A stretch of DNA of 46,881 bases from a virus (lineage: Duplodnaviria > Heunggongvirae > Uroviricota > Caudoviricetes): the IMG/VR virus record IMGVR_UViG_3300018065_000012; one strand, written 5' to 3'. A model generated the notes under the pieces. It saw only the letters and a list, made by a program, of their open reading frames with translations. It had not been told where the DNA came from and ran no database searches. Every line of letters starts with the position of its first letter. Position 1 is the first letter of the stretch. Positions 2,584 through 13,167 of the stretch are shown here, in pieces. Position numbers and translations under genes: made by a program.

Positions 2584-2658
2584 TTGCGGAGTGGAGAAGT
2601 AGAATCTCGTCTGGCTCATAACCAGAAGGTCGCTGGTGCAATTCCAGCCTCCGCTACC
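2584..2658 (+). tRNA. tRNA-Met(CAU)-like (possibly initiator or Ile2 type); position 1:72 unpaired
   Basis: Cloverleaf by eye: D-stem GAGA/TCTC, anticodon stem TCTGG/CCAGA with loop CUCAUAA, variable AGGTC, T-arm GCTGG-TGCAATT-CCAGC, acceptor GCGGAG/CTCCGC, ends ACCA. The T-loop is non-canonical (G55). Confidence 0.5.
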
Positions 2659-2665
2659 AGACTGA

Positions 2666-2688
2666 CAAGTGGGTTAGTTCCACTTTTT
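2666..2688 (+). terminator. rho-independent terminator-like hairpin (AAGTGG-GTTAGTT-CCACTT + TTTTT)
   Basis: 6-bp stem, 7-nt loop, followed by T5, immediately after the tRNA-Met-like gene. Confidence 0.45.
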
Positions 2689-2689
2689 G

Positions 2690-3062
2690 GTTAGCTCAGT
2701 GCCGATTAATGGCTAAACAGGGAAACCCCGCTGAGCTTTGAAAACAGTTCTCGCTGAAGCCGAAATATCAAAGGGCGCTTTGCGGGACGGGCCTCCGAGA
2801 ACACACGACGCAGTTCTCATGGGAGCCGTGCGAGGACTTAATATTTAAGGTGAGTGAAATGTTTTGTTTTAGATTTGCCGAACAATCTGCCTCGTTACTC
2901 ATGCGAAAGCATGAGCGCGGTATTGCCGCGTCGGGGCGACTTATTTTGTCACCCAGTTTGACAAAACAAGAAGTCGTCCTGAATACGAATGATACCAGTT
3001 GACAAGGTTCGGCGAATGAAGAAAAATGAACGCCGGACCTTGAAAAGTTCGGCGTTTTTTTG
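2690..3062 (+). other. non-coding or structured region of about 370 nt (possible small RNA); an alternative 47-aa ORF lies at 2861-3004
   Basis: No long + ORF. Multiple hairpins: AGCTCAG...CTGAGCT, CTCATGC-GAAA-GCATGAG (GNRA tetraloop), CGCGG-TATTG-CCGCG, TTGTCA...TGACAA. Ends in a strong terminator. An ATG at 2861 with AAGGTGAG SD gives a 47-aa ORF that cannot be excluded. Confidence 0.3.
3030..3062 (+). terminator. rho-independent terminator (AACGCCGGAC...GTTCGGCGTT + T7)
   Basis: GC-rich imperfect inverted repeat followed by TTTTTTT. Confidence 0.6.
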
Positions 3063-3095
3063 TTGGCTAAATATAAAAGGAAGTGGGGGTGCGTC

Positions 3096-3632
3096 ATGAA
3101 GCGGGTTTTACTGCTCGGAAGAAACGGAAGAATCCTTGATGTAGTCTGCTGGAAGGCAGCGATCAATCTGACGTACTTCCGTGGATGCGGAAGGGATGTC
3201 GTGTTCCCGCTTGAATATCATGATGTTGAGGTTCGTTCTCAATATCAGTCTTTCAAGCTTCCGGCGGTTATGATTCTGCTTGGCAACCGTGACCGCTACC
3301 CGAATAGTGACGTGCTTCCGCTGTCCCGTTCAAATGTGTTGCTTCGGGATGAATACACGTGCCAGTACTGCGGAAAGAAATTGTCTTTCACAAGCGGTAC
3401 GATCGACCACGTTTTTCCGCTGTGCAAGGGCGGCACCAATACGTGGAGAAATGTGGTTGCGTGTTGCGAAGACTGTAACAACGAAAAGGATGACTTGAGA
3501 CTGGAACAGTACACGAAGCAGACGGGTAAGAAGCTGAAGAAAAAGCCACGGACTCCAAGCCGTGGGGTGCTGTTCAGGTCTTATGTTGAAAAGGAAGGTT
3601 ACGGCTGTTGGAAACCTTACATCAGCGTGTAA
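3096..3632 (+). CDS. HNH homing endonuclease
   Basis: CQYCGKK ... TIDHVFPLCKGG...N...VACCEDCNNEK: an HNH/zinc-finger nuclease motif. ATG at 3096 with AAGGAAG SD; the ORF-track frame starts at 3060. Confidence 0.8.
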   Translation: MKRVLLLGRNGRILDVVCWKAAINLTYFRGCGRDVVFPLEYHDVEVRSQYQSFKLPAVMILLGNRDRYPNSDVLPLSRSNVLLRDEYTCQYCGKKLSFTSGTIDHVFPLCKGGTNTWRNVVACCEDCNNEKDDLRLEQYTKQTGKKLKKKPRTPSRGVLFRSYVEKEGYGCWKPYISV

Positions 3633-3638
3633 TTTTCC

Positions 3639-3667
3639 TTGAAAATGTTCTTTGACAATTGTATAAC
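3639..3667 (+). promoter_or_regulatory. sigma70-like promoter TTGAAA-N17-TATAAC (copy 2), upstream of tRNA cluster 1
   Basis: TTGAAA 3639-3644, 17-nt spacer, TATAAC 3662-3667. Same motif family as 2526. Confidence 0.55.
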
Positions 3668-3680
3668 GTAATAGCGGAAT

Positions 3681-3757
3681 TGGAGCTGTAGCTCAACTGG
3701 TCAGAGTATCGGACTGTCGATCCGAGGGTTGCGGGTTCGAGTCCCGTCAGCTCCGCC
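3681..3757 (+). tRNA. tRNA-Asp(GUC)
   Basis: Acceptor GGAGCTG/CAGCTCC, D GCTC/GAGT, anticodon stem TCGGA/TCCGA loop CUGUCGA, T-arm GCGGG-TTCGAGT-CCCGT, discriminator G, CCA. Confidence 0.8.
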
Positions 3758-3765
3758 AGATGACA

Positions 3766-3793
3766 ACGCAGTGGGGAATTCCCCACTGCTTTT
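3766..3793 (+). promoter_or_regulatory. inter-tRNA hairpin CAGTGGGG-AATT-CCCCACTG followed by CTTTTGG (processing or terminator-like)
   Basis: Perfect 8-bp stem with a 4-nt loop between two tRNA genes. Confidence 0.4.
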
Positions 3794-3869
3794 GGGCGGT
3801 TAGTTCAGTTGGTAGAACGCATGGATCACAACCATGAGGTCACTGGTTCAAGTCCAGTACCGCCCACCA
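3794..3869 (+). tRNA. tRNA-Val(CAC)
   Basis: Acceptor GGGCGGT/ACCGCCC, D GTTC/GAAC, anticodon stem CATGG/CCATG loop AUCACAA, T-arm ACTGG-TTCAAGT-CCAGT, A73, CCA. Anchored to ORF-track ATG 3834. Confidence 0.8.
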
Positions 3870-3877
3870 GAAACAAA

Positions 3878-3954
3878 CGGAAGGTTAAGGTATTTGATTC
3901 CGAGTCCTTGGTTGAATTATATGCGTTATGCGCCAGCTTTGGGTTGGCCTTCCG
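3878..3954 (+). other. 77-nt element enclosed by a perfect 7-bp helix CGGAAGG/CCTTCCG (structured RNA or degenerate tRNA-like)
   Basis: tRNA-sized unit with an acceptor-like closing helix, but the interior does not fold into a canonical cloverleaf. Confidence 0.25.
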
Positions 3955-3964
3955 TGAATAAAAT

Positions 3965-4036
3965 CCAGCACGCTTCAGTGATGGGATACTTCTCCATTTT
4001 AGGAAAAAAAGCAACCTGTCGCGTTTTTTGGTGCTG
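3965..4036 (+). ncRNA. Bracketed tRNA-array element A (minimal copy of the module-bracketed family)
   Basis: 5' module CCAGCAC-GCTTCAGTG...GATACTTC, 3' module GCGTTTTTTGGTGCTGG. Terminal helix CCAGCAC/GTGCTGG. No tRNA-like insert. Confidence 0.55.
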
Positions 4037-4041
4037 GTTTA

Positions 4042-4117
4042 TGGCCCTGTGATGTAATTGGAAACATGTCAGGTTTTCAGCCTGATTTTTGGGGTTCGAG
4101 TCCCCACAGGGTCACCA
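4042..4117 (+). tRNA. tRNA-Glu(UUC)
   Basis: Acceptor GGCCCTG/CAGGGTC (G2-U71), D ATGT/ACAT, anticodon stem TCAGG/CCTGA loop UUUUCAG, T-arm TGGGG-TTCGAGT-CCCCA, A73, CCA. Confidence 0.8.
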
Positions 4118-4127
4118 AAAAATAATT

Positions 4128-4261
4128 CCAGTACGCTTCAGTGAAGAGATACTTCGACTTGTAATCGAGAGGTTGCGGGTTCGAGTCCCGTCGGTTTGCT
4201 TCGGCAAACTGTAGCTCAATTGGCAGAGCGCTAAATACCTCTTTGCGTTTTTTGGTACTGG
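4128..4261 (+). ncRNA. Bracketed element B carrying a circularly permuted tRNA-Thr(UGU)-like core
   Basis: Order in DNA: 5' module, anticodon arm TTCGA-CUUGUAA-TCGAG, variable AGGTT, T-arm GCGGG-TTCGAGT-CCCGT, acceptor 3' strand CGGTTTG, then C-TTCG-G cap, acceptor 5' strand CAAACTG, TA, D-arm GCTC-AATTGGCA-GAGC, G26, 3' module. The D-arm, anticodon loop and variable loop are identical to the genuine tRNA-Thr(UGU) at 12586. Confidence 0.55.
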
Positions 4262-4269
4262 AATTTTTC

Positions 4270-4346
4270 GGGGATGAAGACGAAGTGGACGAGTCACTGC
4301 CCTGTCACGGCAGAGTAAGCGGGTTCAAGTCCCGTCATTCCCGCCA
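4270..4346 (+). tRNA. tRNA-Asp(GUC), second divergent copy
   Basis: Acceptor GGGGATG/CATTCCC (G4-U69), 3-bp D-stem, anticodon stem CTGCC/GGCAG loop CUGUCAC, T-arm GCGGG-TTCAAGT-CCCGT, G73, CCA. Confidence 0.7.
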
Positions 4347-4355
4347 AGTTTACGT

Positions 4356-4430
4356 TCCGGCGTGGCCCAACGGTAGGGCAGCTGGCTGTTAACCAGTTCA
4401 TTGGAAGTTCGACTCTTCCCGCCGGAGCCA
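4356..4430 (+). tRNA. tRNA-Asn(GUU)
   Basis: Acceptor TCCGGCG/CGCCGGA, D GCCC/GGGC, anticodon stem GCTGG/CCAGT loop CUGUUAA, T-arm GGAAG-TTCGACT-CTTCC, G73, CCA. Confidence 0.8.
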
Positions 4431-4433
4431 TTT

Positions 4434-4520
4434 GCGCAAGTGCTGGAACAGGTAGACAGGCCAGTTTGAGGGACTGGTGTCCGAAAGGGCGTGGGAGTTC
4501 GAATCTCCCCTTGCGCACCA
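4434..4520 (+). tRNA. tRNA-Leu(GAG), class II
   Basis: Acceptor GCGCAAG/CTTGCGC, anticodon stem CCAGT/ACTGG loop UUGAGGG, long variable arm TGTCCGAAAGGGCGT, T-arm GGGAG-TTCGAAT-CTCCC, A73, CCA. Confidence 0.8.
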
Positions 4521-4628
4521 AATAATTTTTTGATAAAGTGCAATAGGAAAGGAGAAACAACAAATGCTTGATCTCACTTGTACCAAAGGGGGTCTGCCAT
4601 GTTAGAGCCTTAACGAAAGGAGCTAAAC

Positions 4629-5018
4629 ATGAGCAGAACCTTCAAGAAGTACCCACGGCACTGGTATAGGCGTCCAAGCGGACGTAAGAGAGCGCTGGTG
4701 AATGGGGTAAGGAAACGGGCTGTGCCTCCCGACCCTTACGATGATATTCACCCCGACAGACAGTGCTTTAGTGCAGACAAAGTTGGTTTGGAGTTGCACA
4801 AGTTGGGATGGAGCAACGAAAAGATTGCCAAGCGTTTGAGTTGGAGATTCAAAGTTCCTTACTTGGTGATTTGGCACAGCATTATCCCCGACAAACCGTT
4901 TGATTGGTGGTGGTCTTGCAAGTGTAAGGAATGCAATGAAAAATACCAAGCTTGGCGGGAGTGGCGCGGAGGAATGCGTCTTTATTCTTGGGATGAGTTG
5001 GCAGTGGAACGCGGCTGA
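4629..5018 (+). CDS. hypothetical protein (basic N-terminus, Trp/Cys-rich)
   Basis: ATG with AAAGGAG SD; 129 aa; no motif recognised. Confidence 0.5.
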   Translation: MSRTFKKYPRHWYRRPSGRKRALVNGVRKRAVPPDPYDDIHPDRQCFSADKVGLELHKLGWSNEKIAKRLSWRFKVPYLVIWHSIIPDKPFDWWWSCKCKECNEKYQAWREWRGGMRLYSWDELAVERG

Positions 5019-5036
5019 GACAAGGAAGAATAGCGG

Positions 5037-5119
5037 TGTGACGAAACTGGTAAACGTGCATGGCTTAGAACCATGTGCCCTTTGTGGGCTTGAGGGTTCG
5101 ACTCCCTTCACCGCTACCA
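5037..5119 (+). tRNA. tRNA-Leu(UAG), class II
   Basis: Acceptor AGCGGTG/CACCGCT, anticodon stem CATGG/CCATG loop CUUAGAA, variable arm TGCCCTTTGTGGGCT, T-arm GAGGG-TTCGACT-CCCTT, A73, CCA. Confidence 0.8.
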
Positions 5120-5135
5120 TTTGAGGAAAGAGCAA

Positions 5136-5894
5136 ATGACAGATATCATTGTTCTGACTCACAACAAGGAAGAGAAAACCTGTCGTTGTTTTGAATCCAT
5201 TGCGTTGAATACAAAAAATTATCGGGTGCTTTGGGTTGACAATGGCTCAGAAGAAGCAAGCATTCAAAAGGTTTTGCCGTTTGCTGAAAAGCTTGAAAAC
5301 TTTCGCTTGATGCGCAACAAGGAAAATGAAGGGTTTTCAAAAGGGGTCAATTGCGCCTTGCGTCTTTTCTTGTTTGACGGATTATCTGATCACCTTATCT
5401 TGCTGAACAATGACGTTGTTGTGACGAAAGGTTGGCTTGATCATTTGATTGCTGCGATGAAGAAATCAGGTTTGGATGCAATTGGCCCAGTGACATCAGA
5501 CAATTGTCAACAAAGCCTTGAAGCATTACGGCCTCAATTGAGTAGAAAATTGCCGGAGTTCACGGACGAAACGACAGAGGAAAAAGCGAGAATATTATAT
5601 GAGGACGCAGGTAGTGCAGTTTATCCGGTGACTTCAATCTTGACTTTTTTCTGTGTGTTGTTTCGCAGGGAAACGGTTGAACAAATCGGGTTGCTTGATG
5701 AAAACATTTTCGCCTACGGTGAAGATAACGATTATTGTGAGCGAATGAAACGCACGGGGAAGAAAATGGGATTAGCTGTTGGAATTTACGTTGAGCATGA
5801 TCACGGCGCAACGGCTCAGTTGTTTGGAGACAGCTGGAAAGAGAAACAAATGAAAAAGGCTTCGGCGTATATCCAGCAGAAATATAATCTTTAG
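5136..5894 (+). CDS. Family 2 glycosyltransferase (GT-A fold)
   Basis: IIVLTHN...VDNGS...LLNNDVVV... and YGEDNDYCERM (DxD/ED motifs typical of GT2). ATG 5136 with GAGGAAAG SD; the ORF-track frame opens at TTG 5121. Confidence 0.7.
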   Translation: MTDIIVLTHNKEEKTCRCFESIALNTKNYRVLWVDNGSEEASIQKVLPFAEKLENFRLMRNKENEGFSKGVNCALRLFLFDGLSDHLILLNNDVVVTKGWLDHLIAAMKKSGLDAIGPVTSDNCQQSLEALRPQLSRKLPEFTDETTEEKARILYEDAGSAVYPVTSILTFFCVLFRRETVEQIGLLDENIFAYGEDNDYCERMKRTGKKMGLAVGIYVEHDHGATAQLFGDSWKEKQMKKASAYIQQKYNL

Positions 5895-5981
5895 GCGTTG
5901 TGGTGAAACTGGCAGACACGCATGATTCAGGGTCATGTTCCCTTTTTGGGAGTGAGGGTTCGACTCCCTCCAACGCCACCA
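5894..5981 (+). tRNA. tRNA-Leu(CAG), class II
   Basis: Acceptor GGCGTTG/CAACGCC, anticodon stem CATGA/TCATG loop UUCAGGG, variable arm TTCCCTTTTTGGGAG, T-arm GAGGG-TTCGACT-CCCTC, A73, CCA. The first G overlaps the upstream stop codon. Confidence 0.8.
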
Positions 5982-5983
5982 TC

Positions 5984-6058
5984 GGCCCTATGGAGTAATC
6001 GGAAACTCACCAGATTCTCAGTCTGGAATTCAGGGTTCGAGTCCCTGTAGGGTCACCA
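5984..6058 (+). tRNA. tRNA-Glu(CUC)
   Basis: Acceptor GGCCCTA/TAGGGTC, D GAGT/ACTC, anticodon stem CCAGA/TCTGG loop UUCUCAG, T-arm CAGGG-TTCGAGT-CCCTG, A73, CCA. Confidence 0.8.
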
Positions 6059-6089
6059 GCTTCGGATTATGAATTGCTTAAAAGATAAA

Positions 6090-6166
6090 GGGCGATTAGC
6101 TCAGCTGGACAGAGCACTTGCTCGACAAGCAAGGGGTCAGTGGTTCGAGTCCACTATCGCCCACCA
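6090..6166 (+). tRNA. tRNA-Val(GAC)
   Basis: Acceptor GGGCGAT/ATCGCCC, D GCTC/GAGC, anticodon stem CTTGC/GCAAG loop UCGACAA (C33 is unusual), T-arm AGTGG-TTCGAGT-CCACT, A73, CCA. Anchored to ORF-track frames 6069/6118. Confidence 0.75.
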
Positions 6167-6177
6167 TTGTAGGAATC

Positions 6178-6255
6178 GGACGCGTAGCTCAGATTGGTCA
6201 GAGCACTTCTCTTACAAGGAAGGGGTCACAGGTTCGAGTCCTGTCGCGTCCACCA
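6178..6255 (+). tRNA. tRNA-Val(UAC)
   Basis: Acceptor GGACGCG/CGCGTCC, D GCTC/GAGC, anticodon stem CTTCT/GGAAG loop CUUACAA, T-arm ACAGG-TTCGAGT-CCTGT, A73, CCA. Confidence 0.8.
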
Positions 6256-6273
6256 AATGAAAGGCGGTGGAAA

Positions 6274-6507
6274 ATGGAAAACAAGGCGCTACCAAAGATC
6301 AAACTACGGGCCGTAAAAGAACCACAAAAAGAAAAGGCTCCAAAGAACACGTATTTGCTCACCATGCGCTTTCCAATCACCGCACTTGACGATGTTGAAG
6401 CGCGCGAACGTGCTTGGAAGCATATGAAGTTTCATAACTTTGTTAAGCTTGATGCAAAGCTTCAACGTGTTCGTGACAAGAAGGCACCGGAGAAAGTAAA
6501 TCTATGA
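6274..6507 (+). CDS. hypothetical protein (77 aa, Lys-rich)
   Basis: ATG 6274 after the tRNA. The ORF-track entry 6118-6507 begins inside tRNA genes, so the shorter start was chosen. Confidence 0.45.
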   Translation: MENKALPKIKLRAVKEPQKEKAPKNTYLLTMRFPITALDDVEARERAWKHMKFHNFVKLDAKLQRVRDKKAPEKVNL

Positions 6508-6932
6508 TTACAGTGACGTGTAATGGCTGTTTTGACGGGTTGCATCCCGGCCACTTGTTTTATCTTGGTTATTGTCGAGCGCAAGGTGACCGTTTGGTCG
6601 TTGGGATCAATTCCGATGAATACATAGCCAACAAGAAAAGAACAAAGCCGTATTTTGATGCTAAGCAACGTAAAGAAGTATTGCTGGCGCTCAACATTGC
6701 TGAAGATGTAATTGTGTTTGATGAACCGAATCCAAACGAATTCATCCGTAAGGTTCATCCGCAAGTGCATTGTACGGGTGAAGAATACGGCTATGAATGT
6801 GCTGAGTCAGTAATTTGTAATGAGCTTGGAATCAAATTGGTATTGGTTCCAAGAACGGCAATATGGTCAACGGGAAGTTTACCGTTGATTGGAATGAAAT
6901 GGGTTGCTGATTTTATGAATAGCGGAAAATGA
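6504..6932 (+). CDS. Nucleotidyltransferase of the HldE/RfaE domain II type (heptose-1-phosphate adenylyltransferase-like or cytidylyltransferase)
   Basis: VTCNGCFDGLHPGHLFYL is the HxGH nucleotidyltransferase signature as in RfaE/HldE and TagD. ATGA overlap with the upstream gene. Confidence 0.7.
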   Translation: MITVTCNGCFDGLHPGHLFYLGYCRAQGDRLVVGINSDEYIANKKRTKPYFDAKQRKEVLLALNIAEDVIVFDEPNPNEFIRKVHPQVHCTGEEYGYECAESVICNELGIKLVLVPRTAIWSTGSLPLIGMKWVADFMNSGK

Positions 6933-6946
6933 ACGTGGAGGGGAAA

Positions 6947-7306
6947 ATGGGCAAAAACTCGCAAGATAAAGGTGATTTGAGCAAGGTTATGATCATAGGT
7001 GCCTTGATGAAGAAAGACAAAAAGGTACTTGATACAATTGGAGAAAATCACAGATTTGATCTTGCGTTTTATGAAGAAGGGACAAGATGTTTCAAAACGG
7101 TTCAATGCAAAACAGGACAGTACAAAAACGGTTGCGTGATTTTTCCTACTTGTAGTGTTGTCAAGAATTCCAAAACTGGAAAACACGAAAGAAGGACTTA
7201 TAAAGGTCAAGTGGACTTTTTTTGGAGTGTATTGTCAAAAGAAAGAAAAGTGTTATCTTGTCCCGGAGAAAATTGCCGGTCAATCTTACACGTACTTAAG
7301 AGTTGA
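6947..7306 (+). CDS. hypothetical protein
   Basis: ATG 6947 with GGAGGGG SD (ORF-track frame from 6929); ends at 7306. Confidence 0.45.
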   Translation: MGKNSQDKGDLSKVMIIGALMKKDKKVLDTIGENHRFDLAFYEEGTRCFKTVQCKTGQYKNGCVIFPTCSVVKNSKTGKHERRTYKGQVDFFWSVLSKERKVLSCPGENCRSILHVLKS

Positions 7307-7363
7307 AAAACCAAAAGTCAAATGCAACAGGATAAACCGAGCTGAAGATTATGAATTATAATC

Positions 7364-7455
7364 GGGGGGATGGCTGAGCGGCTTAAAGCGCACGGTTGCT
7401 AACCGTGTGGGCGTTAGTAGCGTCTCGTGGGTTCGAATCCCACTCCCCCCGCCAT
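7364..7455 (+). tRNA. tRNA-Ser(GCU), class II
   Basis: Acceptor GGGGGGA/TCCCCCC, anticodon stem CACGG/CCGTG loop UUGCUAA, long variable arm, T-arm GTGGG-TTCGAAT-CCCAC, G73, CCA. Confidence 0.8.
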
Positions 7456-7460
7456 TCAAG

Positions 7461-7521
7461 GAGGGCTAAACCAGTGAGGTGTTAAAGCCTCCGCAGGTTC
7501 GAATCCTGTCCCCTCCGCCAC
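7461..7521 (+). pseudogene. 61-nt tRNA-like mini-element (acceptor helix, T-arm and CCA, but no D-arm)
   Basis: GGAGGG(C)...GCAGG-TTCGAAT-CCTGT-CCCCTCC-G-CCA. Interior has a GAGG-UGUUAAAG-CCUC hairpin. Too short for a tRNA. Confidence 0.3.
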
Positions 7522-7542
7522 TTTCAAAGAAAGGAGACAAGT

Positions 7543-7698
7543 GTGTCAGATGCCAAAAAGTCTCGCAAACTGGAACGCATCAAAAGGCGCATGGAAAACG
7601 TCGTTGACGACTGCGAATCGCTTTTGAAGATTTGCAATGGCGACTTGCGCATGAAAGAATTGCGGGACAAAGCACTTGAGTTTTACAAGCTTATTTAA
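7543..7698 (+). CDS. small helical hypothetical protein (51 aa)
   Basis: GTG start 5-6 nt after AAAGGAGA. ...SRKLERIKRRMENVVDDCESLLKICNGDLRMKELRDKALEFYKLI*. The stop abuts tRNA-Ser(UGA). Confidence 0.35.
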   Translation: MSDAKKSRKLERIKRRMENVVDDCESLLKICNGDLRMKELRDKALEFYKLI

Positions 7699-7789
7699 GG
7701 AAGGTTGGCAGAGTGGTTGAATGCGCTGGTTTTGAAAACCAGTGGGCGTCAAAAACGTCTCATGGGTTCGAATCCCATACCTTCCTCCA
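7699..7789 (+). tRNA. tRNA-Ser(UGA), class II
   Basis: Acceptor GGAAGGT/ACCTTCC, anticodon stem CTGGT/ACCAG loop UUUGAAA, long variable arm, T-arm ATGGG-TTCGAAT-CCCAT, U73, CCA. Anchored to ORF-track TTG 7705. Confidence 0.8.
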
Positions 7790-7803
7790 TATATGAAATT
7801 GAT

Positions 7804-7944
7804 ATGAGACAAAACTTGACTTTGACTGACCGGATTTGTATTGTTGTCTTTGTATCGTTGATGATTCTGATGCAACCATTATGGGTTGCGTTGAGAATTC
7901 TTCAATGGTTGATCCGGTTTTGGAAACCTGACTTTCATTGGTAA
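7804..7944 (+). CDS. small hydrophobic protein (46 aa, single TM helix)
   Basis: MRQNLTLTDRICIVVFVSLMILMQPLWVALRILQWLIRFWKPDFHW; in frame with ORF-track entry 7705-7944, starting after the tRNA. Confidence 0.4.
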   Translation: MRQNLTLTDRICIVVFVSLMILMQPLWVALRILQWLIRFWKPDFHW

Positions 7945-7947
7945 TGT

Positions 7948-8024
7948 GTGCCCGTGGCTCAAATGGATAGAGCACCTGACTACGGATCAGGAGGTTGTAG
8001 GTTCGAGTCCTACCGGGCATGCCA
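7948..8024 (+). tRNA. tRNA-Arg(ACG)
   Basis: Acceptor GTGCCCG/CGGGCAT, D GCTC/GAGC, anticodon stem CCTGA/TCAGG loop CUACGGA, T-arm GTAGG-TTCGAGT-CCTAC, G73, CCA. Confidence 0.8.
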
Positions 8025-8041
8025 ACTCAAAGGAATTGCAA

Positions 8042-8122
8042 ATGAAATTCTTTGATGGAACATGGGGATGTTTGATTTGGATTGTTTTGATAGGCGGTTT
8101 ACTGGTTTACTACTTGGCCTGA
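8042..8122 (+). CDS. tiny hydrophobic ORF (26 aa)
   Basis: AAAGGAA SD then ATG. MKFFDGTWGCLIWIVLIGGLLVYYLA*. Confidence 0.25.
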   Translation: MKFFDGTWGCLIWIVLIGGLLVYYLA

Positions 8123-8134
8123 TTGGAATTCTAT

Positions 8135-8211
8135 GGTGAGAGTAGCTCAGATGGTAGAGCGTCTGGTTGTGGTCCAGAAAGTCGCGGGTTCAAGTCCCGT
8201 CTCTCACCCCA
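8135..8211 (+). tRNA. tRNA-His(GUG) with genomically encoded G-1
   Basis: G-1 pairs with C73. Acceptor GTGAGAG/CTCTCAC, D GCTC/GAGC, anticodon stem TCTGG/CCAGA loop UUGUGGU, T-arm GCGGG-TTCAAGT-CCCGT, CCA. Confidence 0.8.
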
Positions 8212-8232
8212 ATATCAACGAAAGGATGAAAT

Positions 8233-8430
8233 TTGAAATGGATAATCTTAATCCTGTTCATGTATATGATAATTGCTATGATATTTTTTCTGCATGAATG
8301 TTCTAAAATACAAAAGCATGTTCCGCCAAAACGTCTTCGACACTGTTCGGTTTACAGGACGCTTCAATGGTTTGAAGCAATTGTTCGAAGCGTTTTATGG
8401 CCGGTTGTGTTGATATTGAATATCTTTTAG
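8233..8430 (+). CDS. hypothetical small membrane protein (65 aa, TTG start)
   Basis: ORF-track frame. Strongly hydrophobic N-terminus (WIILILFMYMIIAMIFFL). Confidence 0.3.
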   Translation: MKWIILILFMYMIIAMIFFLHECSKIQKHVPPKRLRHCSVYRTLQWFEAIVRSVLWPVVLILNIF

Positions 8431-8520
8431 GAAGGGTGGCTGAGCGGCTTAAGGCACTGGTTTCGAAAACCAGCGGACGCCAAAAGCGTCCCGTGGGTTC
8501 AAATCCCATCCCTTCCTCCA
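8430..8520 (+). tRNA. tRNA-Ser(CGA), class II
   Basis: Acceptor GGAAGGG/CCCTTCC, anticodon stem CTGGT/ACCAG loop UUCGAAA, long variable arm, T-arm GTGGG-TTCAAAT-CCCAT, U73, CCA. Confidence 0.8.
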
Positions 8521-8536
8521 TTGTAGGGAACAATCG

Positions 8537-8683
8537 ATGTTCGCTTGGTTTAAGAAATTGTTTTGTAAGAAAGAGGAAGCGCCAGAAGTAGTGGGCTTGA
8601 AAAAGTTTGAGCATCACGCTGAAATCACACTTGAATATAGCGATGGCAAAAGGGTAACACTTTGCGTTCGCAAAGGAGAATAA
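8537..8683 (+). CDS. small hypothetical protein (48 aa)
   Basis: ATG 8537. MFAWFKKLFCKKEEAPEVVGLKKFEHHAEITLEYSDGKRVTLCVRKGE*. Confidence 0.35.
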   Translation: MFAWFKKLFCKKEEAPEVVGLKKFEHHAEITLEYSDGKRVTLCVRKGE

Positions 8684-8758
8684 TCATGGATCATTCAGTT
8701 ACTTCCCGGAGCGGCGAAAGCACGATGGGGCGCAGGCCGCGTGAACCGGGAGGGATTT

Positions 8759-9016
8759 ATGAATCCAGAACGTCGGAGAAAAGGGTTGCTGAAGGTTTGG
8801 AAACTGATGCGGATTTGGCGTAATTATCATGATGGCGATAAAGAATACGCCAATGATGGGTTGATTGCGCAAGGGCATGAGAAAAACCGGAAGCCGTGCT
8901 CTTGTATGATGTGTTGCAATCGTCGCCGTTCAGGTTTTAGTAAGGGAAAAGAAAAGCTTACAAGACAGGAGCGAAAATCAGAAAACAGTTTCAAGGATCA
9001 ACTGGATGAATTGTAG
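8759..9016 (+). CDS. hypothetical basic protein with a Cys cluster (85 aa)
   Basis: ATG 8759 after GGGAGGG (ORF-track frame from 8741). CSCMMCC motif. An alternative out-of-frame 45-aa ORF at 8686-8823 with AAAGGAG SD overlaps it. Confidence 0.45.
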   Translation: MNPERRRKGLLKVWKLMRIWRNYHDGDKEYANDGLIAQGHEKNRKPCSCMMCCNRRRSGFSKGKEKLTRQERKSENSFKDQLDEL

Positions 9017-9104
9017 AGGGGTGTGGTAATTGGTAGCCAGCTGGTTTGGAACACCAGTGTGCCCTAATAAGGCATTGCGGGTTCAAATCCCGTCCCCTCT
9101 GCCA
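9015..9104 (+). tRNA. tRNA-Ser(GGA), class II
   Basis: Acceptor AGAGGGG/CCCCTCT, D TGGT/GCCA, anticodon stem CTGGT/ACCAG loop UUGGAAC, long variable arm, T-arm GCGGG-TTCAAAT-CCCGT, G73, CCA. Confidence 0.75.
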
Positions 9105-9118
9105 CTTTTGAACGATGC

Positions 9119-9194
9119 TGAGGGATAGCTCAATTGGTAGAGCACTTGGCTCTGGTCCAAGCGGTTGCAGGTTCGAATCCTGTTCCCTCTGCCA
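9119..9194 (+). tRNA. tRNA-Gln(CUG) (U1/U72 unpaired, G73)
   Basis: Acceptor TGAGGGA/TCCCTCT, D GCTC/GAGC, anticodon stem CTTGG/CCAAG loop CUCUGGU, T-arm GCAGG-TTCGAAT-CCTGT. Confidence 0.75.
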
Positions 9195-9199
9195 TTTTA

Positions 9200-9274
9200 T
9201 GGCCCGTAGTATAATTGGCAATACACAAGGTTTTGGTCCTTGTATTCCACGTTCGAGTCGTGGCGGGCCAGCCA
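9200..9274 (+). tRNA. tRNA-Gln(UUG) (U1-A72, G73)
   Basis: Acceptor TGGCCCG/CGGGCCA, D GTAT/ATAC, anticodon stem CAAGG/CCTTG loop UUUUGGU, T-arm CCACG-TTCGAGT-CGTGG, CCA. Confidence 0.8.
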
Positions 9275-9276
9275 AC

Positions 9277-9354
9277 GGGACGGTAGCTCAATTTGGTTAG
9301 AGCATCTGCCTTTTAAGCAGGAGGTTGTGGGTTCGAGTCCCACCCGTCTCACCA
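9277..9354 (+). tRNA. tRNA-Lys(UUU)
   Basis: Acceptor GGGACGG/CCGTCTC, D GCTC/GAGC, anticodon stem TCTGC/GCAGG loop CUUUUAA, T-arm GTGGG-TTCGAGT-CCCAC, A73, CCA. Anchored to ORF-track TTG 9325. Confidence 0.8.
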
Positions 9355-9372
9355 ATCTTGAAAGGAGGAACA

Positions 9373-10317
9373 TTGAAGTTTTTTGTAACAGGCGTCTATG
9401 GATTCATCGGCAGTTGCTTTGCAAGAATGTTGATTGAAGAAACTAATCACACGGTTGTTGGTTTTGGCCGGAACACTGATCAAAGAAATAAAGGCCGAAT
9501 CAAAAGCATTATCAGCAGTGAACGTTTCAACCTTATCAATGGCGACCTTGCTGGGGATATAAGTGGATTGCTTGAAGGCGTTGACGTTGTAGTTCATTTT
9601 GCGGCAAAGACTTTTGTGGACCATTCAGTGAAAGACCCTGAACCGTTTGTCCGCAGCAATATTATTGGCAGTTATCAACTTTTGGAACAAGCACGGATTT
9701 ACAAGCCCAAACGCTTCATTCACATTTCAACGGATGAAGTGTATGGCGCGTGTTTAGAAGGGTCTTACAGTGAGGATTCTCCGCTGAATCCGACAAATCC
9801 ATATTCAGCGACAAAAGCAGCTGCGGACGTTTTGGCAACAGGCTACTTTCATACGTACGGGGTGAACGTTATTATCACTCGCACTGAAAACAATGTTGGT
9901 CCGTTCCAGCACCCGCAAAAGGTTCTCCCGACGTTTGTAAGGAAAGCATTGGCTGGTGAGTTGTTGCCGGTTTACGGGGATGGAAAGCACGTAAGACAAT
10001 GGCTTCACGTAAAAGACCATTGCTATGCCGTTTTGCTTTTGATTGAAAAAGGACAGATTGGAGACATTTATCATATTGCTGGCTCAAAGGAATTGCAAAA
10101 CATCGAGTTGGCAAAAATGGTTTTGAAAATCTTGAAAAAGCCGGAAGACGCTTTTGAGTTTATTCCGGACAATGAGATTCGGCCCAATCATGACCGGCGT
10201 TATGCGATTGATTCATCCAAGCTTCGAGCGTTGGGTTGGGAACCAAAGTTTGATCGTGATGAAACCATTCGCAAAACGGTTGAATGGTACGTTAAAAATC
10301 AAAACTGGTTGGTGTAA
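9373..10317 (+). CDS. NDP-sugar 4,6-dehydratase (dTDP-glucose 4,6-dehydratase/RfbB-like, extended SDR)
   Basis: KFFVTGVYGFIGS Rossmann motif, YSATKAAAD (YxxxK), VRQWLHVKDHC. Start chosen at TTG 9373 after AAAGGAGG. The ORF-track frame (9325) opens inside tRNA-Lys. Confidence 0.75.
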   Translation: MKFFVTGVYGFIGSCFARMLIEETNHTVVGFGRNTDQRNKGRIKSIISSERFNLINGDLAGDISGLLEGVDVVVHFAAKTFVDHSVKDPEPFVRSNIIGSYQLLEQARIYKPKRFIHISTDEVYGACLEGSYSEDSPLNPTNPYSATKAAADVLATGYFHTYGVNVIITRTENNVGPFQHPQKVLPTFVRKALAGELLPVYGDGKHVRQWLHVKDHCYAVLLLIEKGQIGDIYHIAGSKELQNIELAKMVLKILKKPEDAFEFIPDNEIRPNHDRRYAIDSSKLRALGWEPKFDRDETIRKTVEWYVKNQNWLV

Positions 10318-10322
10318 ATTAT

Positions 10323-10399
10323 GGACGTATAGCTCAGTTGGTTAGAGCACTCGCCTGATAAGTGAGAGGCCGCTGGTTCGAATCCAGCTACGTCCACCA
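10323..10399 (+). tRNA. tRNA-Ile(GAU)
   Basis: Acceptor GGACGTA/TACGTCC, D GCTC/GAGC, anticodon stem CTCGC/GTGAG loop CUGAUAA, T-arm GCTGG-TTCGAAT-CCAGC, A73, CCA. Confidence 0.8.
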
Positions 10400-10603
10400 A
10401 CTTTATTTGCTCTCATAGGAAGGTCAGGACACCACTGCTGAAGGTAGGAGACAATTGTCGCTCGCACTACTGAGGGTGCAACACAAATAGGCTCCGTTTG
10501 GACTGGGTGAGCAGCAGGAAGGAGCGGGTTGTGGCAAAGATGAATGACAGATTGGAAAACAAAATCCTGCCTACTGTAGAATCTGTCGATGAGAGCATTT
10601 TGT

Positions 10604-10681
10604 GGGTGCGTAGCAAACATTGGTTTTGCAGCGGACTCTTAATCCGTCTTAATGTGGGTTCGATTCCCACCGCACCTACCA
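10604..10681 (+). tRNA. tRNA-Lys(CUU)
   Basis: Acceptor GGGTGCG/CGCACCT, D GCAA/TTGC, anticodon stem GCGGA/TCCGT loop CUCUUAA, T-arm GTGGG-TTCGATT-CCCAC, A73, CCA. Anchored to ORF-track 10498 frame. Confidence 0.75.
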
Positions 10682-10686
10682 ACTTT

Positions 10687-10762
10687 GCTCCCGTAGCTCA
10701 GCTGGACAGAGCGGGACTTTCCTAAAGTTCAGGTCGCAGGTTCGAATCCTGCCGGGAGTACC
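10687..10762 (+). tRNA. tRNA-Arg(CCU)
   Basis: Acceptor GCTCCCG/CGGGAGT, D GCTC/GAGC, anticodon stem GGACT/AGTTC loop UUCCUAA, T-arm GCAGG-TTCGAAT-CCTGC, A73, CCA. Confidence 0.8.
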
Positions 10763-10765
10763 AAA

Positions 10766-11188
10766 ATGATGATTGAAGAAAAACATAAAGACCTTTTTAC
10801 AGTGAGTGATGATTATCACCTTGCTCATTGTATCGCTACTGACATGAGAATGGGCGCTGGAATTGCGTTGCCAATGCAAAAGAAATTTAGATTGAGGGCG
10901 AAAATAAGAAACAGCAACGAATCCATATTGAGTCCAACTTGTATTTTGACTGGTCGCGTTTTCAATTTGATTACAAAACGGCGCAGCAGCGGAAAGCCGA
11001 CCTATCAATCGCTTCAAGCAAGCTTAGTAAAGATGCGTGAAATCATAGAACAAAAAGGCGTTACAAAACTTGCAATGCCAAAAATTGGTTGTGGCCTTGA
11101 TCGTCTTAATTGGGCCGTTGTGCGTCAAATGCTTGAAGATATTTTTTATGGTTTGGAGATCGAAATACTGGTTTGCGTTTGGAAATGA
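10766..11188 (+). CDS. Macro domain protein (ADP-ribose binding or processing)
   Basis: HLAHCIATDMRMGAGIA ... VTKLAMPKIGCGLDRLNW match conserved macro-domain motifs. Confidence 0.6.
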   Translation: MMIEEKHKDLFTVSDDYHLAHCIATDMRMGAGIALPMQKKFRLRAKIRNSNESILSPTCILTGRVFNLITKRRSSGKPTYQSLQASLVKMREIIEQKGVTKLAMPKIGCGLDRLNWAVVRQMLEDIFYGLEIEILVCVWK

Positions 11189-11191
11189 AAT

Positions 11192-11267
11192 GGGGGATTA
11201 GCTCAGTTGGGAGAGCGTTTGACTGGCAGTCAAAAGGTCACGAGTTCGAGTCTCGTATCCTCCACCA
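11192..11267 (+). tRNA. tRNA-Ala(GGC) with G3-U70
   Basis: Acceptor GGGGGAT/ATCCTCC, D GCTC/GAGC, anticodon stem TTTGA/TCAAA loop CUGGCAG, T-arm ACGAG-TTCGAGT-CTCGT, A73, CCA. Confidence 0.8.
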
Positions 11268-11272
11268 CTTGT

Positions 11273-11349
11273 GCTCCCGTAGCTCAAATGGATAGAGTCC
11301 CTGTCTTCTAAACAGGATGTTGCAGGTTCGAGTCCTGCCGGGAGTGCCA
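11273..11349 (+). tRNA. tRNA-Arg(UCU)
   Basis: Acceptor GCTCCCG/CGGGAGT, D GCTC/GAGT, anticodon stem CCTGT/ACAGG loop CUUCUAA, T-arm GCAGG-TTCGAGT-CCTGC, G73, CCA. Confidence 0.8.
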
Positions 11350-11363
11350 ACTTGGAGAACAAA

Positions 11364-11555
11364 ATGGAATTCAGATGGTGGCCGTGCAGGTTGGCAAATG
11401 ATTTTTGTGAGTTGTTGAAAATTCCCGCATATGTTTTAGCATTGCCACTGAAACTGATTGAACATTATCAAGAGACGATTTGGAAAAATTACGCAACTCA
11501 ATCTGACCGGGCGTATACGACAACGGAAATTTCAGATGAAGATTTGGCGGTGTAG
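11364..11555 (+). CDS. hypothetical protein (63 aa)
   Basis: ATG 11364 (ORF-track TTG 11352). The stop lies inside the first 10 nt of the next tRNA. Confidence 0.4.
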   Translation: MEFRWWPCRLANDFCELLKIPAYVLALPLKLIEHYQETIWKNYATQSDRAYTTTEISDEDLAV

Positions 11556-11623
11556 CTCAGTCTGGACAGAGCATCGGATTCATACCCCGAAGGCCACTGG
11601 TTCGATTCCAGTCACCGCTACCA
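11546..11623 (+). tRNA. tRNA-Met(CAU) (initiator-like anticodon stem ...CCCGA; could be Ile2/k2C type)
   Basis: Acceptor GGCGGTG/CACCGCT, D GCTC/GAGC, anticodon stem TCGGA/CCCGA (A31/C39 mismatch) loop UUCAUAC, T-arm ACTGG-TTCGATT-CCAGT, A73, CCA. Confidence 0.7.
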
Positions 11624-11628
11624 ATTTT

Positions 11629-11716
11629 GGGCGAGTGGAGGAATTGGTATACTCGCGGGATTTAAAATCCCGTGGACTAATAGTCCATGAGGGTTCGAGT
11701 CCCTCCTCGCCTACCA
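11629..11716 (+). tRNA. tRNA-Leu(UAA), class II
   Basis: Acceptor GGGCGAG/CTCGCCT, 3-bp D-stem GAG/CTC, anticodon stem CGGGA/TCCCG loop UUUAAAA, variable arm TGGACTAATAGTCCAT, T-arm GAGGG-TTCGAGT-CCCTC, A73, CCA. Anchored to ORF-track ATG 11687. Confidence 0.8.
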
Positions 11717-11734
11717 CTTGACAGGAGAATTTCA

Positions 11735-12289: not shown

Positions 12290-12294
12290 AATGT

Positions 12295-12381
12295 GGCAGC
12301 GTGGTGAAATTGGTATACACGCGTGATTCAAAATCACGTCCGGGCAACCGGGTGAGGGTTCGAGTCCCTCCGCTGCTACCA
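12295..12381 (+). tRNA. tRNA-Leu(CAA), class II
   Basis: Acceptor GGCAGCG/CGCTGCT, anticodon stem CGTGA/TCACG loop UUCAAAA, variable arm TCCGGGCAACCGGGT, T-arm GAGGG-TTCGAGT-CCCTC, A73, CCA. Confidence 0.8.
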
Positions 12382-12388
12382 AACTAAA

Positions 12389-12595
12389 ATGAAAGACAAA
12401 AGCGTAATCCCAGAAGGCATTTATTGTCACGGCGTAAATGGCGTCTGCCCATATTGGTCCTCAAGGGAGGACAAACCAGAGCAGGAAAATGGATACTGTT
12501 CTTTTCTTGAAATGGGCGATTGGAACGATGAGCCTTTGACCCTTTTGTGGGATCAAGTGAAAGAATGCGGAATAAATGATGATTGGCCAACATAG
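12389..12595 (+). CDS. hypothetical protein (68 aa, Cys/Trp-containing)
   Basis: ATG 7 nt after the tRNA CCA. The stop lies inside the next tRNA. Confidence 0.45.
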   Translation: MKDKSVIPEGIYCHGVNGVCPYWSSREDKPEQENGYCSFLEMGDWNDEPLTLLWDQVKECGINDDWPT

Positions 12596-12661: not shown

Positions 12662-12677
12662 CTTCAAAGGGGAAATT

Positions 12678-13127: not shown

Positions 13128-13167
13128 AGCCTTTATCACCCCGCTATTTACGTTATGCAAATCATGG

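Follow-up and report, generated by a model that had tools for sequence, protein, structure and literature searches.

Y RNAs rank among the conserved non-coding RNAs that are least understood, and no role is known for the tRNA-like head borne by those of the YrlA type. In YrlA RNAs (RF02553; Salmonella Typhimurium and Mycobacterium smegmatis; crystal structure 6CU1), the ends of the molecule pair into a protein-binding stem that contains an internal loop, and enclose a permuted tRNA-like head composed of a T arm, a closed acceptor stem and a D arm, with tertiary nucleotides that include a Levitt pair of the A15-U48 type; they also have a YUAY motif and, upstream of the T arm, a "V" stem-loop. 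Chen 2014 reported RNAs of the YrlA type from 254 bacteria and 22 phages. Permuted order is also seen in certain tRNA genes of Cyanidioschyzon merolae and of archaea, in which the 3' half lies upstream of the 5' half, a short linker joins the acceptor ends and the outer ends pair, while tmRNA (including its two-piece permuted form), viral 3' tRNA-like structures and mascRNA combine a T arm/D loop elbow with an acceptor-like stem to engage tRNA-binding enzymes.

The window analyzed here, a stretch of 46,881 nucleotides of DNA from a virus of the Caudoviricetes, contains an element (B, 4128-4261) that shares each of these YrlA features. Judged by its sequence, B belongs to this known class of tRNA-shaped, YrlA-type Y RNAs and is not a new kind of gene. 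We place at roughly 0.7 the probability that it is a Y-RNA-like non-coding RNA gene of the YrlA family, predicted to act as an unspliced, tRNA-mimicking scaffold for protein, and not a decoding tRNA gene. An earlier, sequence-only reading had proposed a circularly permuted tRNA-Thr(UGU) gene of a sort reported from neither bacteria nor phages; that statement of novelty was mistaken, as YrlA RNAs have been published as circularly permuted tRNA mimics from bacteria and phages alike. The new feature here is the closing stem of B (the handle), which is of an undescribed type.

The assignment to the family draws on several comparisons. A covariance model (R1) derived from only 28 RNAs, each encoded just upstream of a phage TROVE (Ro60) gene, matched B at 4129-4260 over model positions 1-133 of 133 (99.9 bits, E 7e-20). 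The Rfam YrlA model RF02553 recognized the tRNA-like core (4168-4232, model positions 24-84; 33.9 bits, E 3e-6) without reaching its gathering score of 69 bits, a threshold that does not separate the TROVE-adjacent phage RNAs either, since these score 35-47 bits. The standard tRNA model RF00005 gave only a partial match (20.4 bits, against a gathering score of 29). By BLASTN, B is ~80% identical over 86 nt to an unannotated stretch beside a Ro-like gene in Gordonia phage Sixama, and the genes adjoining related RNAs encode TROVE proteins, as determined with Pfam and an HMM search; no cultured phage relative was found. B has the T arm, closed acceptor-like stem and D arm in that order, the tertiary nucleotides, and ends that pair as stem, internal loop and stem, all of them among the features by which membership in this class is judged. 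Phage Y-RNA-like genes adjacent to TROVE genes, comprising those of mycobacteriophages (Chen 2014), of Gordonia phages Sixama and GMA2, of Thermus phage phiLo (Yrl1 and Yrl2) and of the 129 IMG/VR loci examined, are collinear with B over its full length. They share with it the UUACUUC sequence (nearly invariant in both sets), an anticodon-arm mimic, a T arm, an acceptor stem that is often UUCG-capped, a D arm and a CUAAA linker, and in the handle a second stem of 8 bp that begins with a G-C pair and an asymmetric internal loop whose 3' strand is the longer one and rich in U. The geometry of the handle of B matches that of 97 TROVE-linked handles.

The tRNA segments listed in the sequence-only reading were each found where it had placed them, running from the anticodon-like arm through the variable loop, T arm and UUCG-capped acceptor stem to the D arm (Table 1), and its structural interpretation, a complete cloverleaf rotated by a break between positions 26 and 27 with the acceptor ends joined through UUCG, was borne out. 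When B was rotated (4204-4230 followed by 4153-4199), ARAGORN called tRNA-Thr(tgt); no tRNA was called in the native order. The free ends had been described as held together by a module helix: they are indeed paired, not by a single helix but by two, of 7 bp and 8 bp, with an internal loop between them. The YrlA of S. Typhimurium differs from B in that its anticodon stem consists of the two strands leading to the handle, without an anticodon loop; it is the separate 5-bp/7-nt hairpin occupying the anticodon-arm position in B that places the break at 26/27. Tertiary-contact nucleotides read from the sequence at 4170-4230 (U8, A14, A21, A9-U12-A23, C13-G22-G46, A15-U48, G18G19 and T loop UUCGA) coincide, in a comparison at the sequence level, with the contacts listed for the YrlA crystal (Wang 2018). 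Across the family the D arm hardly varies, and the UUCG cap recurs in Sixama, GMA2 and two of the related loci (L025 and L033).

Table 1. Features of element B and its paralogues in the window.
Feature	Position	Strand	Basis
Handle stem 1, 5' strand CCAGUAC (partner 4255-4261)	4128-4134	+	Minimum-free-energy fold; covariation in 32 elements, 5/7 pairs compensatory
Handle internal loop, 5' strand GCUUCA	4135-4140	+	Invariant in the elements collected (motif selected by the searches)
Handle stem 2, 5' strand GUGAAGAG (partner 4239-4246)	4141-4148	+	7/8 pairs compensatory
Linker AUAC, within the conserved (A/U)UACUUC motif ("YUAY" of YrlA RNAs)	4149-4152	+	Motif comparison
Anticodon-arm mimic: 5-bp stem UUCGA/UCGAG, 7-nt loop CUUGUAA ("V" stem-loop of Chen 2014)	4153-4169	+	ARAGORN; covariation, 4/5 pairs
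Variable loop AGGUU (G46; U48 for the A15-U48 Levitt pair)	4170-4174	+	Read from sequence
T arm GCGGG-UUCGAGU-CCCGU	4175-4191	+	Rfam YrlA match; ARAGORN; covariation; model R1
Closed acceptor stem: 3' strand CGGUUUG (4192-4198), cap C-UUCG-G (4199-4204), 5' strand CAAACUG (4205-4211)	4192-4211	+	Covariation, 7/7 pairs compensatory; minimum-free-energy fold
U8-A9, D arm GCUC-AAUUGGCA-GAGC (4214-4229), G26 (4230)	4212-4230	+	ARAGORN; Rfam; covariation
3' linker CUAAAUAC; CUAAA common to Ro60-linked relatives	4231-4238	+	Sequence comparison
Handle stem 2, 3' strand CUCUUUGC	4239-4246	+	Covariation; minimum-free-energy fold
Handle internal loop, 3' strand GUUUUUUG; consensus G-N-Y-UUUU-G	4247-4254	+	Element comparison
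Handle stem 1, 3' strand GUACUGG	4255-4261	+	Covariation; minimum-free-energy fold
Paralogue A: same handle, short head (small hairpin and A-rich tract), resembling short Y RNAs of TROVE loci	3965-4037	+	
Paralogue C: same handle, permuted tRNA-like head, acceptor loop ACCAUGA (discriminator and CCA kept)	34138-34271	+	Model R1, 61.2 bits, E 3e-11
Paralogue D: same handle; head of T arm, closed 7-bp stem and hairpin replacing the D arm	34281-34388	+	z-score -5.7
Paralogue E: same handle; head of A/U hairpin, T arm and GGGUGGNCCC hairpin; head type recurs in other contigs	34405-34514	+	
Paralogue F: minimal form, handle and small hairpin	40706-40770	+	

The tRNA-like structure of B is far above chance expectation. 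Across 20 related RNAs the four helices of the head covary, with 98% of cells being paired, against 69% after shuffling, and 17/21 pairs compensatory, in an alignment whose parse itself selected for pairing. The two helices of the handle covary across 32 elements (98% against 74% shuffled; 12/15 pairs compensatory), and all eight pairs of the second stem form in 27/34 elements, though this stem played no part in their selection. By minimum free energy, the anticodon-like and T regions of B would pair otherwise than in the cloverleaf, and the arrangement indicated by covariation was preferred. The anticodon-arm mimic keeps a U as the second and an A as the seventh nucleotide of its loop in 90% or more of the sequences, around a middle triplet that varies. 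These observations bear on the notion that B is a non-functional relic, left as a scar when tRNA genes duplicated in tandem or recombined, or else a small mobile element bounded by terminal inverted repeats, a reading which we credit least of all the readings considered. Such an origin would explain why elements occur in multiple copies with inverted ends, and it is true that adjacent standard tRNAs provide the permuted order by themselves, as exemplified by a match of model R1 to 33991-34106, which spans the 3' part of a tRNA-Pro and the 5' part of a tRNA-Ala. On the other hand, six helices show compensatory changes and include many G-U pairs that work only in RNA of the + strand; the loops are conserved in about 30 elements from many metagenome contigs; the terminal repeats covary without their sequence being conserved; and the strand is always that of the tRNAs. 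The permuted order that arises where standard tRNAs adjoin is likely to be the evolutionary origin of the element.

That B is a true permuted gene, from which RNase P and a 3' nuclease would cut at the cap, the handle would be removed and positions 26 and 27 would be ligated to give a decoding tRNA-Thr(UGU), is in our estimation highly improbable. The rotated sequence does score as tRNA-Thr(UGU), and, as had been claimed, the D arm, 7-nt loop and variable loop AGGUU are identical to those of the standard tRNA-Thr(UGU) at 12586-12661. Cleavage by RNase P at the cap has a precedent in the M. smegmatis YrlA, which is cut there and then receives CCA, and an N73-CCA following the acceptor 3' strand is kept in paralogue C and in elements of two related contigs (one in L011 and two in L060), but the counterpart of C does not keep it (ACUA in L044). 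The threonine identity is not supported. The loop of the closest counterparts (L025, L049 and L055) is CUAUUAA, with AUU as its triplet; the loop CUUGUAA, and the D-arm sequence with it, are family features that appear also in Ro60-linked RNAs (L085, L105 and L190); and the tRNAs of the window cover all 20 amino acids, threonine (UGU) being served by the standard gene. Excision of the handle with ligation at 26/27 is similarly unsupported. The permuted genes of C. merolae and some archaea yield essential decoding tRNAs by means of a bulge-helix-bulge (3-nt bulge, 4-bp helix, 3-nt bulge) together with a ligase and a splicing endonuclease; in B a 6/8-nt internal loop separates the 7-bp and 8-bp stems in place of this motif, the tRNA is not needed and its anticodon is not conserved. 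The ORFs scanned in the window revealed no RNA ligase, polynucleotide kinase, splicing endonuclease or CCA-adding enzyme. Moreover, the same outer helix frames heads that could not become tRNAs (those of A, F, D and E, and inserts of 121-223 nt). Of the interpretations offered by the sequence-only reading, its fallback of an unprocessed tRNA mimic is the best supported. The closed acceptor stem and separate protein handle of B also set it apart from tmRNA, viral 3' tRNA-like structures and mascRNA, which have a free CCA end and whose function involves aminoacylation or cleavage by RNase P.

Six elements in the window bear this handle. The heads are long and tRNA-like in B and C, reduced in D and E, and short in A and F. 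Counting these six, about 30 elements in related contigs carry the handle; all are situated in tRNA arrays except two on one short contig, and a TROVE gene was found close to none of them. Clustering of the ORFs around them returned only homing endonucleases and ORFs overlapping tRNA genes as conserved neighbors. Genomes with TROVE loci likewise encode several of these RNAs, both long and short: the loci contain 1-5 each, in size classes of 60-80 nt and 120-140 nt, all with YUACUUC; A/F and B/C of the window correspond to the short and long classes, respectively. Handle-like matches rejected as chance include a single one in a "Bathyarchaeia" MAG (from a scan of genome collections) and those in L053 and L057, all in coding DNA, together with 20/23 matches in a first viral handle scan.

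The handle differs from those of described Y RNAs at the very site where Ro60 is bound. The Ro60-binding motif of YrlA, GNCGAAN0-1G (CGAA), is absent from B, in which the strands of the loop are ACGCUUCAG and GNYUUUUG; ACGCUUCAG forms the 5' strand in 6/6 elements of the window and in the approximately 30 relatives. TROVE-linked handles, although of the same geometry, carry UGG(C/U)G(U/A/C)A where the window type has GCUUCA, or, with both strands of the internal loop considered, UGG(C/U)GNA and GYYUGUUCC as opposed to GCUUCA and GNYUUUUG. The two types were never mixed among the loci examined (129 TROVE loci and the window-type loci): the window-type handle occurs in 0/129 phage TROVE loci among the IMG/VR matches listed, and the sole match to the TROVE-type motif in window-type loci (L048) looks like chance. 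Natural variants of the 5' loop (GCUCCA and ACUUCA) were encountered in L059 and L019; its invariance otherwise must be viewed in light of element searches that selected for GCUUCA. Their genomic settings also differ, as the window type is found within tRNA arrays and the TROVE-linked type beside its partner gene. No TROVE gene was detected by tblastn, phmmer or a custom HMM in the window or in the related loci, which include ~120 kb carrying the window-type handle, and none was present in the 8 kb upstream and 4 kb downstream of the window; B has no rsr/TROVE gene within 4 kb. Two scans of IMG/VR for TROVE, conducted with few peptide patterns, included neither of the two viral contigs with this handle among the matches listed. 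Rfam, at E-value and gathering thresholds, returned no family for the handle, and matched the head only with YrlA and a partial tRNA. The handle matched no self-cleaving ribozyme or other known motif, and by inspection fits none of the consensuses for hammerhead, hairpin, twister, pistol or kink-turn; an ENE-like, U-rich clamp for an A-rich linker was dropped because the CUUC of the 5' loop is unsuited to it.

Taken together, these features suggest how a YrlA-type scaffold encoded by B might operate. The elements lie on the same strand as every tRNA, often 6-10 nt from a neighboring one, and no promoter-like sites were found near them; on account of this spacing, strand and want of promoters, B would probably be transcribed with the surrounding tRNA array and freed through processing of the adjoining tRNAs. 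Its ends pair into the two-stem handle that covariation defines, with GCUUCA opposite GUUUUUUG, and its middle folds as a complete tRNA-shaped head, as covariation and homology show, for which the YrlA crystal structure predicts an L shape. As in other Y RNAs, the handle may be the docking site of a dedicated protein, and the head may offer a tRNA-like surface to tRNA-binding factors. In relatives, the handle bears the Ro60 motif and the RNA gene adjoins one for Ro60/TROVE; in B the Ro60-contacting loop has been rewritten, and, as no TROVE gene is nearby, the partner would be either a protein other than Ro60 or a divergent Ro60 encoded elsewhere in the genome, which spans no less than 338 kb (the window is the terminal 46.9 kb of the 338,319-bp contig ena:ERZ27256780:k141_931436). 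We tentatively entertain, as a possibility on the doubtful side, that the window-type handle marks a Ro60-independent branch of Y RNAs that recruits a different protein and whose genes have relocated to tRNA arrays in very large phages. Its heads, complete mimics of tRNA that differ in their anticodon-like loops and in related contigs are permuted at further positions, would then act as lures or adaptors directed at tRNA-targeting or tRNA-sensing systems of the host.

An unlikely alternative would dispense with the protein altogether, making B a tRNA decoy that soaks up or lures host enzymes attacking or using tRNAs (for instance anticodon nucleases, toxins or modification enzymes), with a handle that does nothing but close the ends and protect them from exonucleases. 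A full tRNA-mimic head would suit this purpose, as would its 5-bp/7-nt anticodon-arm mimic, in which U33-like and A38-like positions are conserved; the diversity of loop triplets is what one would expect of baits differing in specificity, and the elements, set in the tRNA arrays of large phages, are linked to a partner gene in no instance. Arguing against it is the handle itself, whose internal loop is invariant while the flanking stems change freely, a pattern that specific binding sites typically show and simple clamps do not. Paralogues A and F, the short ones, furthermore retain the handle without a tRNA-like head, and homologues of the same architecture are partners of Ro60, as indicated here by gene linkage and, for M. 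smegmatis and Thermus phage phiLo, by experiment.

A protein scaffold of the YrlA type is thus the reading that we favor for B, and the window-type family provides a natural experiment, in which head and architecture have been kept while the Ro60-binding loop was replaced, the Ro60 gene was unlinked and the elements multiplied in phage tRNA arrays. Two outcomes are conceivable, that phage Ro60 recognizes a second handle quite unlike the first or that a new partner has taken over the tRNA-mimic module, and each would inform the purpose of the tRNA-like head. There is also a consequence for annotation: genes of this sort in tRNA arrays escape tRNA finders and score under the Rfam threshold, and rotating them could mislead a reader into calling a permuted tRNA gene.

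The window is phage-like, with its tRNA genes gathered in two arrays and all encoded on the + strand, and element B lies within the first of these (see table). Read base by base, B agrees with the segment-by-segment description given in the sequence-only reading. Its 5' part runs from the CCAGUAC stem strand through GCUUCA and the GUGAAGAG stem strand to AUAC, followed by a hairpin (UUCGA-CUUGUAA-UCGAG), AGGUU and the T arm (GCGGG-UUCGAGU-CCCGU); then come CGGUUUG, C-UUCG-G, CAAACUG and UA, the D arm (GCUC-AAUUGGCA-GAGC) and a G, and the 3' part comprises CUAAAUAC, CUCUUUGC, GUUUUUUG and GUACUGG in turn. ARAGORN made no tRNA call on B in its native order; rotated, with 4204-4230 placed ahead of 4153-4199, the sequence was called as tRNA-Thr(UGU), and its D arm, 7-nt loop and AGGUU are the same as in the standard tRNA-Thr(UGU) gene at 12586-12661. 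In B, the strand that adjoins the D arm does not pair with the one that adjoins the variable loop; the hairpin thus takes the place of an anticodon arm, and the chain break falls at 26/27, as had been proposed, whereas the break in S. Typhimurium YrlA falls at the anticodon loop.

Positions of the tRNA arrays and of the elements with common ends in the window
Feature	Coordinates	Strand	Description
tRNA arrays	2585-13244 and 33892-39571	+	47 tRNAs, 20/20 amino acids, including Ile(UAU) at 37208-37283
Element A	3965-4037		Same ends as B
Element B	4128-4261	+	Between tRNA-Glu (4043-4117) and tRNA-Asp (4270-4346)
Element C	34138-34271		Same ends as B
Element D	34281-34388		Same ends as B
Element E	34405-34514		Same ends as B
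Element F	40706-40770		Same ends as B

The sequence-only reading took permuted tRNA genes to be unreported in bacteria and phages; B is not the first of its kind there, since it falls in a known family. YrlA RNAs were described near the Ro60 genes of 254 bacteria and 22 phages; in them an acceptor-like stem separates the T arm from the D arm, a "V" stem-loop lies upstream, and a YUAY motif is present (Chen et al. 2014). A 2024 structure-comparison paper found the Y RNA/tRNA pair to be the main natural circular permutation among RNA folds. The Rfam YrlA model (Y RNA-like, RF02553; model positions 24-84) matches 4168-4232, comprising the T arm, closed acceptor stem and D arm, at 33.9 bits (E 3e-6), less than the gathering score of 69; Ro60-linked phage RNAs score 35-47 bits with this model, a range comparable with the score of B. 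Among isolated phages, BLASTN found 4154-4239 to be ~80% identical to unannotated DNA of the Gordonia phages Sixama, Forza, Boopy and GMA2. The Sixama counterpart lies inside a tRNA/tmRNA array, immediately downstream of a "Ro-like RNA binding protein" gene, and that of GMA2 downstream of an ORF 62% identical to the Sixama protein. No cultured relative was present in the phage collection. The GMA2 tRNA array also contains a pistol ribozyme (L002 1762-1818, 56.8 bits), and a metagenomic phage contig has a twister-P5 match barely at the gathering score (L012 12687-12763).

The relationship was tested without recourse to Rfam, using 129 phage loci from IMG/VR that encode TROVE (Ro60) proteins, the TROVE domain being confirmed by Pfam in representatives. 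In 94 of these loci there are between one and five RNAs whose 5' motif is UGG(C/U)GNA-N8-YUACUUC, mostly immediately upstream of the gene; 110 of 117 distinct elements share its strand. They form two size classes, of 60-80 nt and 120-140 nt, and 97 distinct copies parse into stem 1, followed by an internal loop (5' YGNA, 3' GYYUGU), an 8-bp stem 2 and YUACUUC. A covariance model, R1, built only from 28 long TROVE-linked RNAs, matches 4129-4260 over all 133 model positions (99.9 bits, E 7e-20) and paralogue C at 34139-34270 (61.2 bits). Its alignment with B spans both stems of the handle (the paired outer ends), UUACUUC, the hairpin, T arm, acceptor stem, D arm and a CUAAA linker; B is therefore a full-length homologue of the phage Y RNAs linked to Ro60.

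The alternative, that B is a true tRNA-Thr(UGU) gene matured by ligation of 26/27, draws on the rotated call and on the segments shared with the standard gene, and is not supported. Throughout the family the D arm (GCUCAAUUGGCAGAGC) hardly varies, and the CUUGUAA loop occurs also in TROVE-linked RNAs (L085, L105, L190). The closest counterpart of B, in three related contigs (L025, L049, L055), with an identical stem 1 CCAGUAC, has the loop CUAUUAA, and other heads enclosed by the window-type handle give GUU, UUU, UGA, GCU, GAU, UCG or UAG when rotated; the "anticodon" of the family is thus not conserved. An additional tRNA-Thr would also be superfluous, as the tRNAs of the window already cover the full set of 20 amino acids, including Thr(UGU). 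Nor does B correspond to the permuted tRNA genes of archaea and algae: its outer helices do not form a bulge-helix-bulge motif, and the scanned ORFs yielded no ligase, kinase, splicing endonuclease or CCA-adding enzyme. B does not require ligation. Moreover, the heads of A, F, D and E, framed by the handle that B has, are unable to become tRNAs. Support goes instead to the fallback offered with that reading, that B is a tRNA mimic, which puts B in a known family.

Elements A to F form a set of six with common ends. Scanning the window, and viral and metagenome contigs by pattern, yielded 34 distinct handle sequences, 32 of them clean. Among the clean sequences, pairing in stem 1 (7 bp) and stem 2 (8 bp) reaches 98% (shuffles, 74%), with compensatory changes in 12 of 15 pairs, the search filter having included stem 1 but not stem 2. 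Many of the pairs are G-U, and selection therefore acts on the + strand RNA. The internal loop, GCUUCA opposite G-N-Y-UUUU-G, is without variation in a set whose searches demanded much of the 5' motif; a model search recovered two variants, GCUCCA and ACUUCA. Exactly where this loop stands in B, relatives carry instead the Ro60 motif GNCGAAN0-1G (CGAA). The two types of handle keep apart. The window-type handle was found in none of the 129 TROVE loci, and tblastn, phmmer and a custom HMM detected no TROVE gene in the window-type loci (~120 kb besides the window), which also lacked any convincing TROVE-type handle, a single motif match (L048) looking like chance. The flanks read, 8 kb past one end of the window and 4 kb past the other, likewise held no TROVE gene. 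The window represents the terminal 46.9 kb of a contig of 338,319 bp. Apart from two elements on a short contig without a called tRNA (L054), all window-type elements are embedded in tRNA arrays, where they share the strand of the tRNAs and often lie 6-10 nt from a neighbour, and no promoter-like sites were found near them. By virtue of its handle and genomic setting, B is a new variant of the known Y RNA family.

The four helices of the head, compared in 9 window-type and 11 TROVE-linked RNAs, are 98% paired, versus 69% in shuffles and 35-49% with partners slid, and compensatory changes affect 17 of 21 pairs; the alignment parse itself favoured pairing, which raises the percentage and leaves the compensatory changes unaffected. 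The hairpin earlier described as an anticodon arm is a conserved family hairpin, with a 7-nt loop on a 5-bp stem; the middle triplet of the loop is free, and its positions 2 and 7 are U and A, respectively, in at least 90% of sequences. All the nucleotides listed as making tertiary contacts in the YrlA crystal (Wang et al.) are present in B, including an A15-U48 Levitt pair. Both handle and head are established as structures at the RNA level.

Related contigs carry the same handle around other contents. In L046 (28-157) and L060 (- strand, 1474-1609 and 1251-1385) it encloses tRNA-like heads permuted elsewhere, with arm orders acceptor-D-anticodon-T and T-acceptor-D-anticodon, which ARAGORN calls as tRNAs once rotated. 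In L051 (2942-3164) and L012 (~10308-10545; L014 is alike), the handle or a close variant surrounds a structured insert of ~180-220 nt, which has no Rfam match and whose start (...GGNUCUAAGGUAGC...) is common to L051 and L012. The same tRNA-like head occurs in L032 (~5310-5470) on a plain 7-bp closing stem lacking the internal loop; it adjoins an ORF (2980-4569) for a DUF2828/DUF7788 vWA protein, not TROVE, which may represent a third type of partner.

By its setting, B would be co-transcribed with the tRNAs and freed by tRNA processing. Its head is probably L-shaped and could be recognised by tRNA-binding enzymes, by analogy with YrlA, for which others have shown this, while the handle loop is a putative specific protein site; the partner might be a divergent Ro60, possibly encoded elsewhere in the genome, or another protein. 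A discriminator base and CCA immediately follow the acceptor 3' strand in C (ACCAUGA), in L011 and in two elements of L060. Retention of CCA fits either descent from tandem tRNA genes or processing by RNase P and CCA addition as in M. smegmatis, where RNase P cuts YrlA in the acceptor loop and CCA is added (Chen et al. 2014). In L044, however, the element corresponding to C reads ACUA, so that CCA is not strictly retained. R1 also matches adjacent standard tRNA junctions, for example 33991-34106 (44 bits), where 3' tRNA-Pro and 5' tRNA-Ala sequences meet; this shows how permuted order can arise, and is both a caution for permuted Y RNA searches and a hint at the origin of the genes.

Several other features of the window merit mention. 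An 86-nt tRNA at 35953-36038, Cys(GCA) by ARAGORN, is best matched by the selenocysteine tRNA model (RF01852, 60.6 bits); its fold is Sec-like and its anticodon that of Cys. A 72-nt tRNA-Trp(CCA) at 34681-34752, its anticodon at position 31, was called by ARAGORN only, was absent from the Rfam matches at the gathering threshold, and lies immediately upstream of a second tRNA-Trp. The second array also holds a TadA-like deaminase ORF (35331-35786). Between 5121 and 12289, tRNAs are interspersed with sugar and polyamine metabolism genes, including a cytidylyltransferase and a pyruvoyl arginine decarboxylase; the window has two glycosyltransferases, the second at 31064-32521, and two GDP-mannose-dehydratase-like epimerases (9325-10317 and 32636-33571). 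A caspase-like (Peptidase_C14) ORF at 93-1103 has a 728-aa homologue (L055 1613-3796) in a related contig, enlarged by a long insertion reminiscent of an intein or homing endonuclease. Six consecutive ORFs of ~250-285 aa (21886-26499), two with weak matches to the Mtd second domain, are followed by three tandem ORFs of 411-412 aa, of which the one scanned gave a beta-helix match. The two sets have the look of receptor-binding or depolymerase protein arrays, and assemblies from related samples break in this region (21886-30569). Finally, an ORF of 1894 aa with many collagen triple-helix repeats (41491-46881) runs past the window end.
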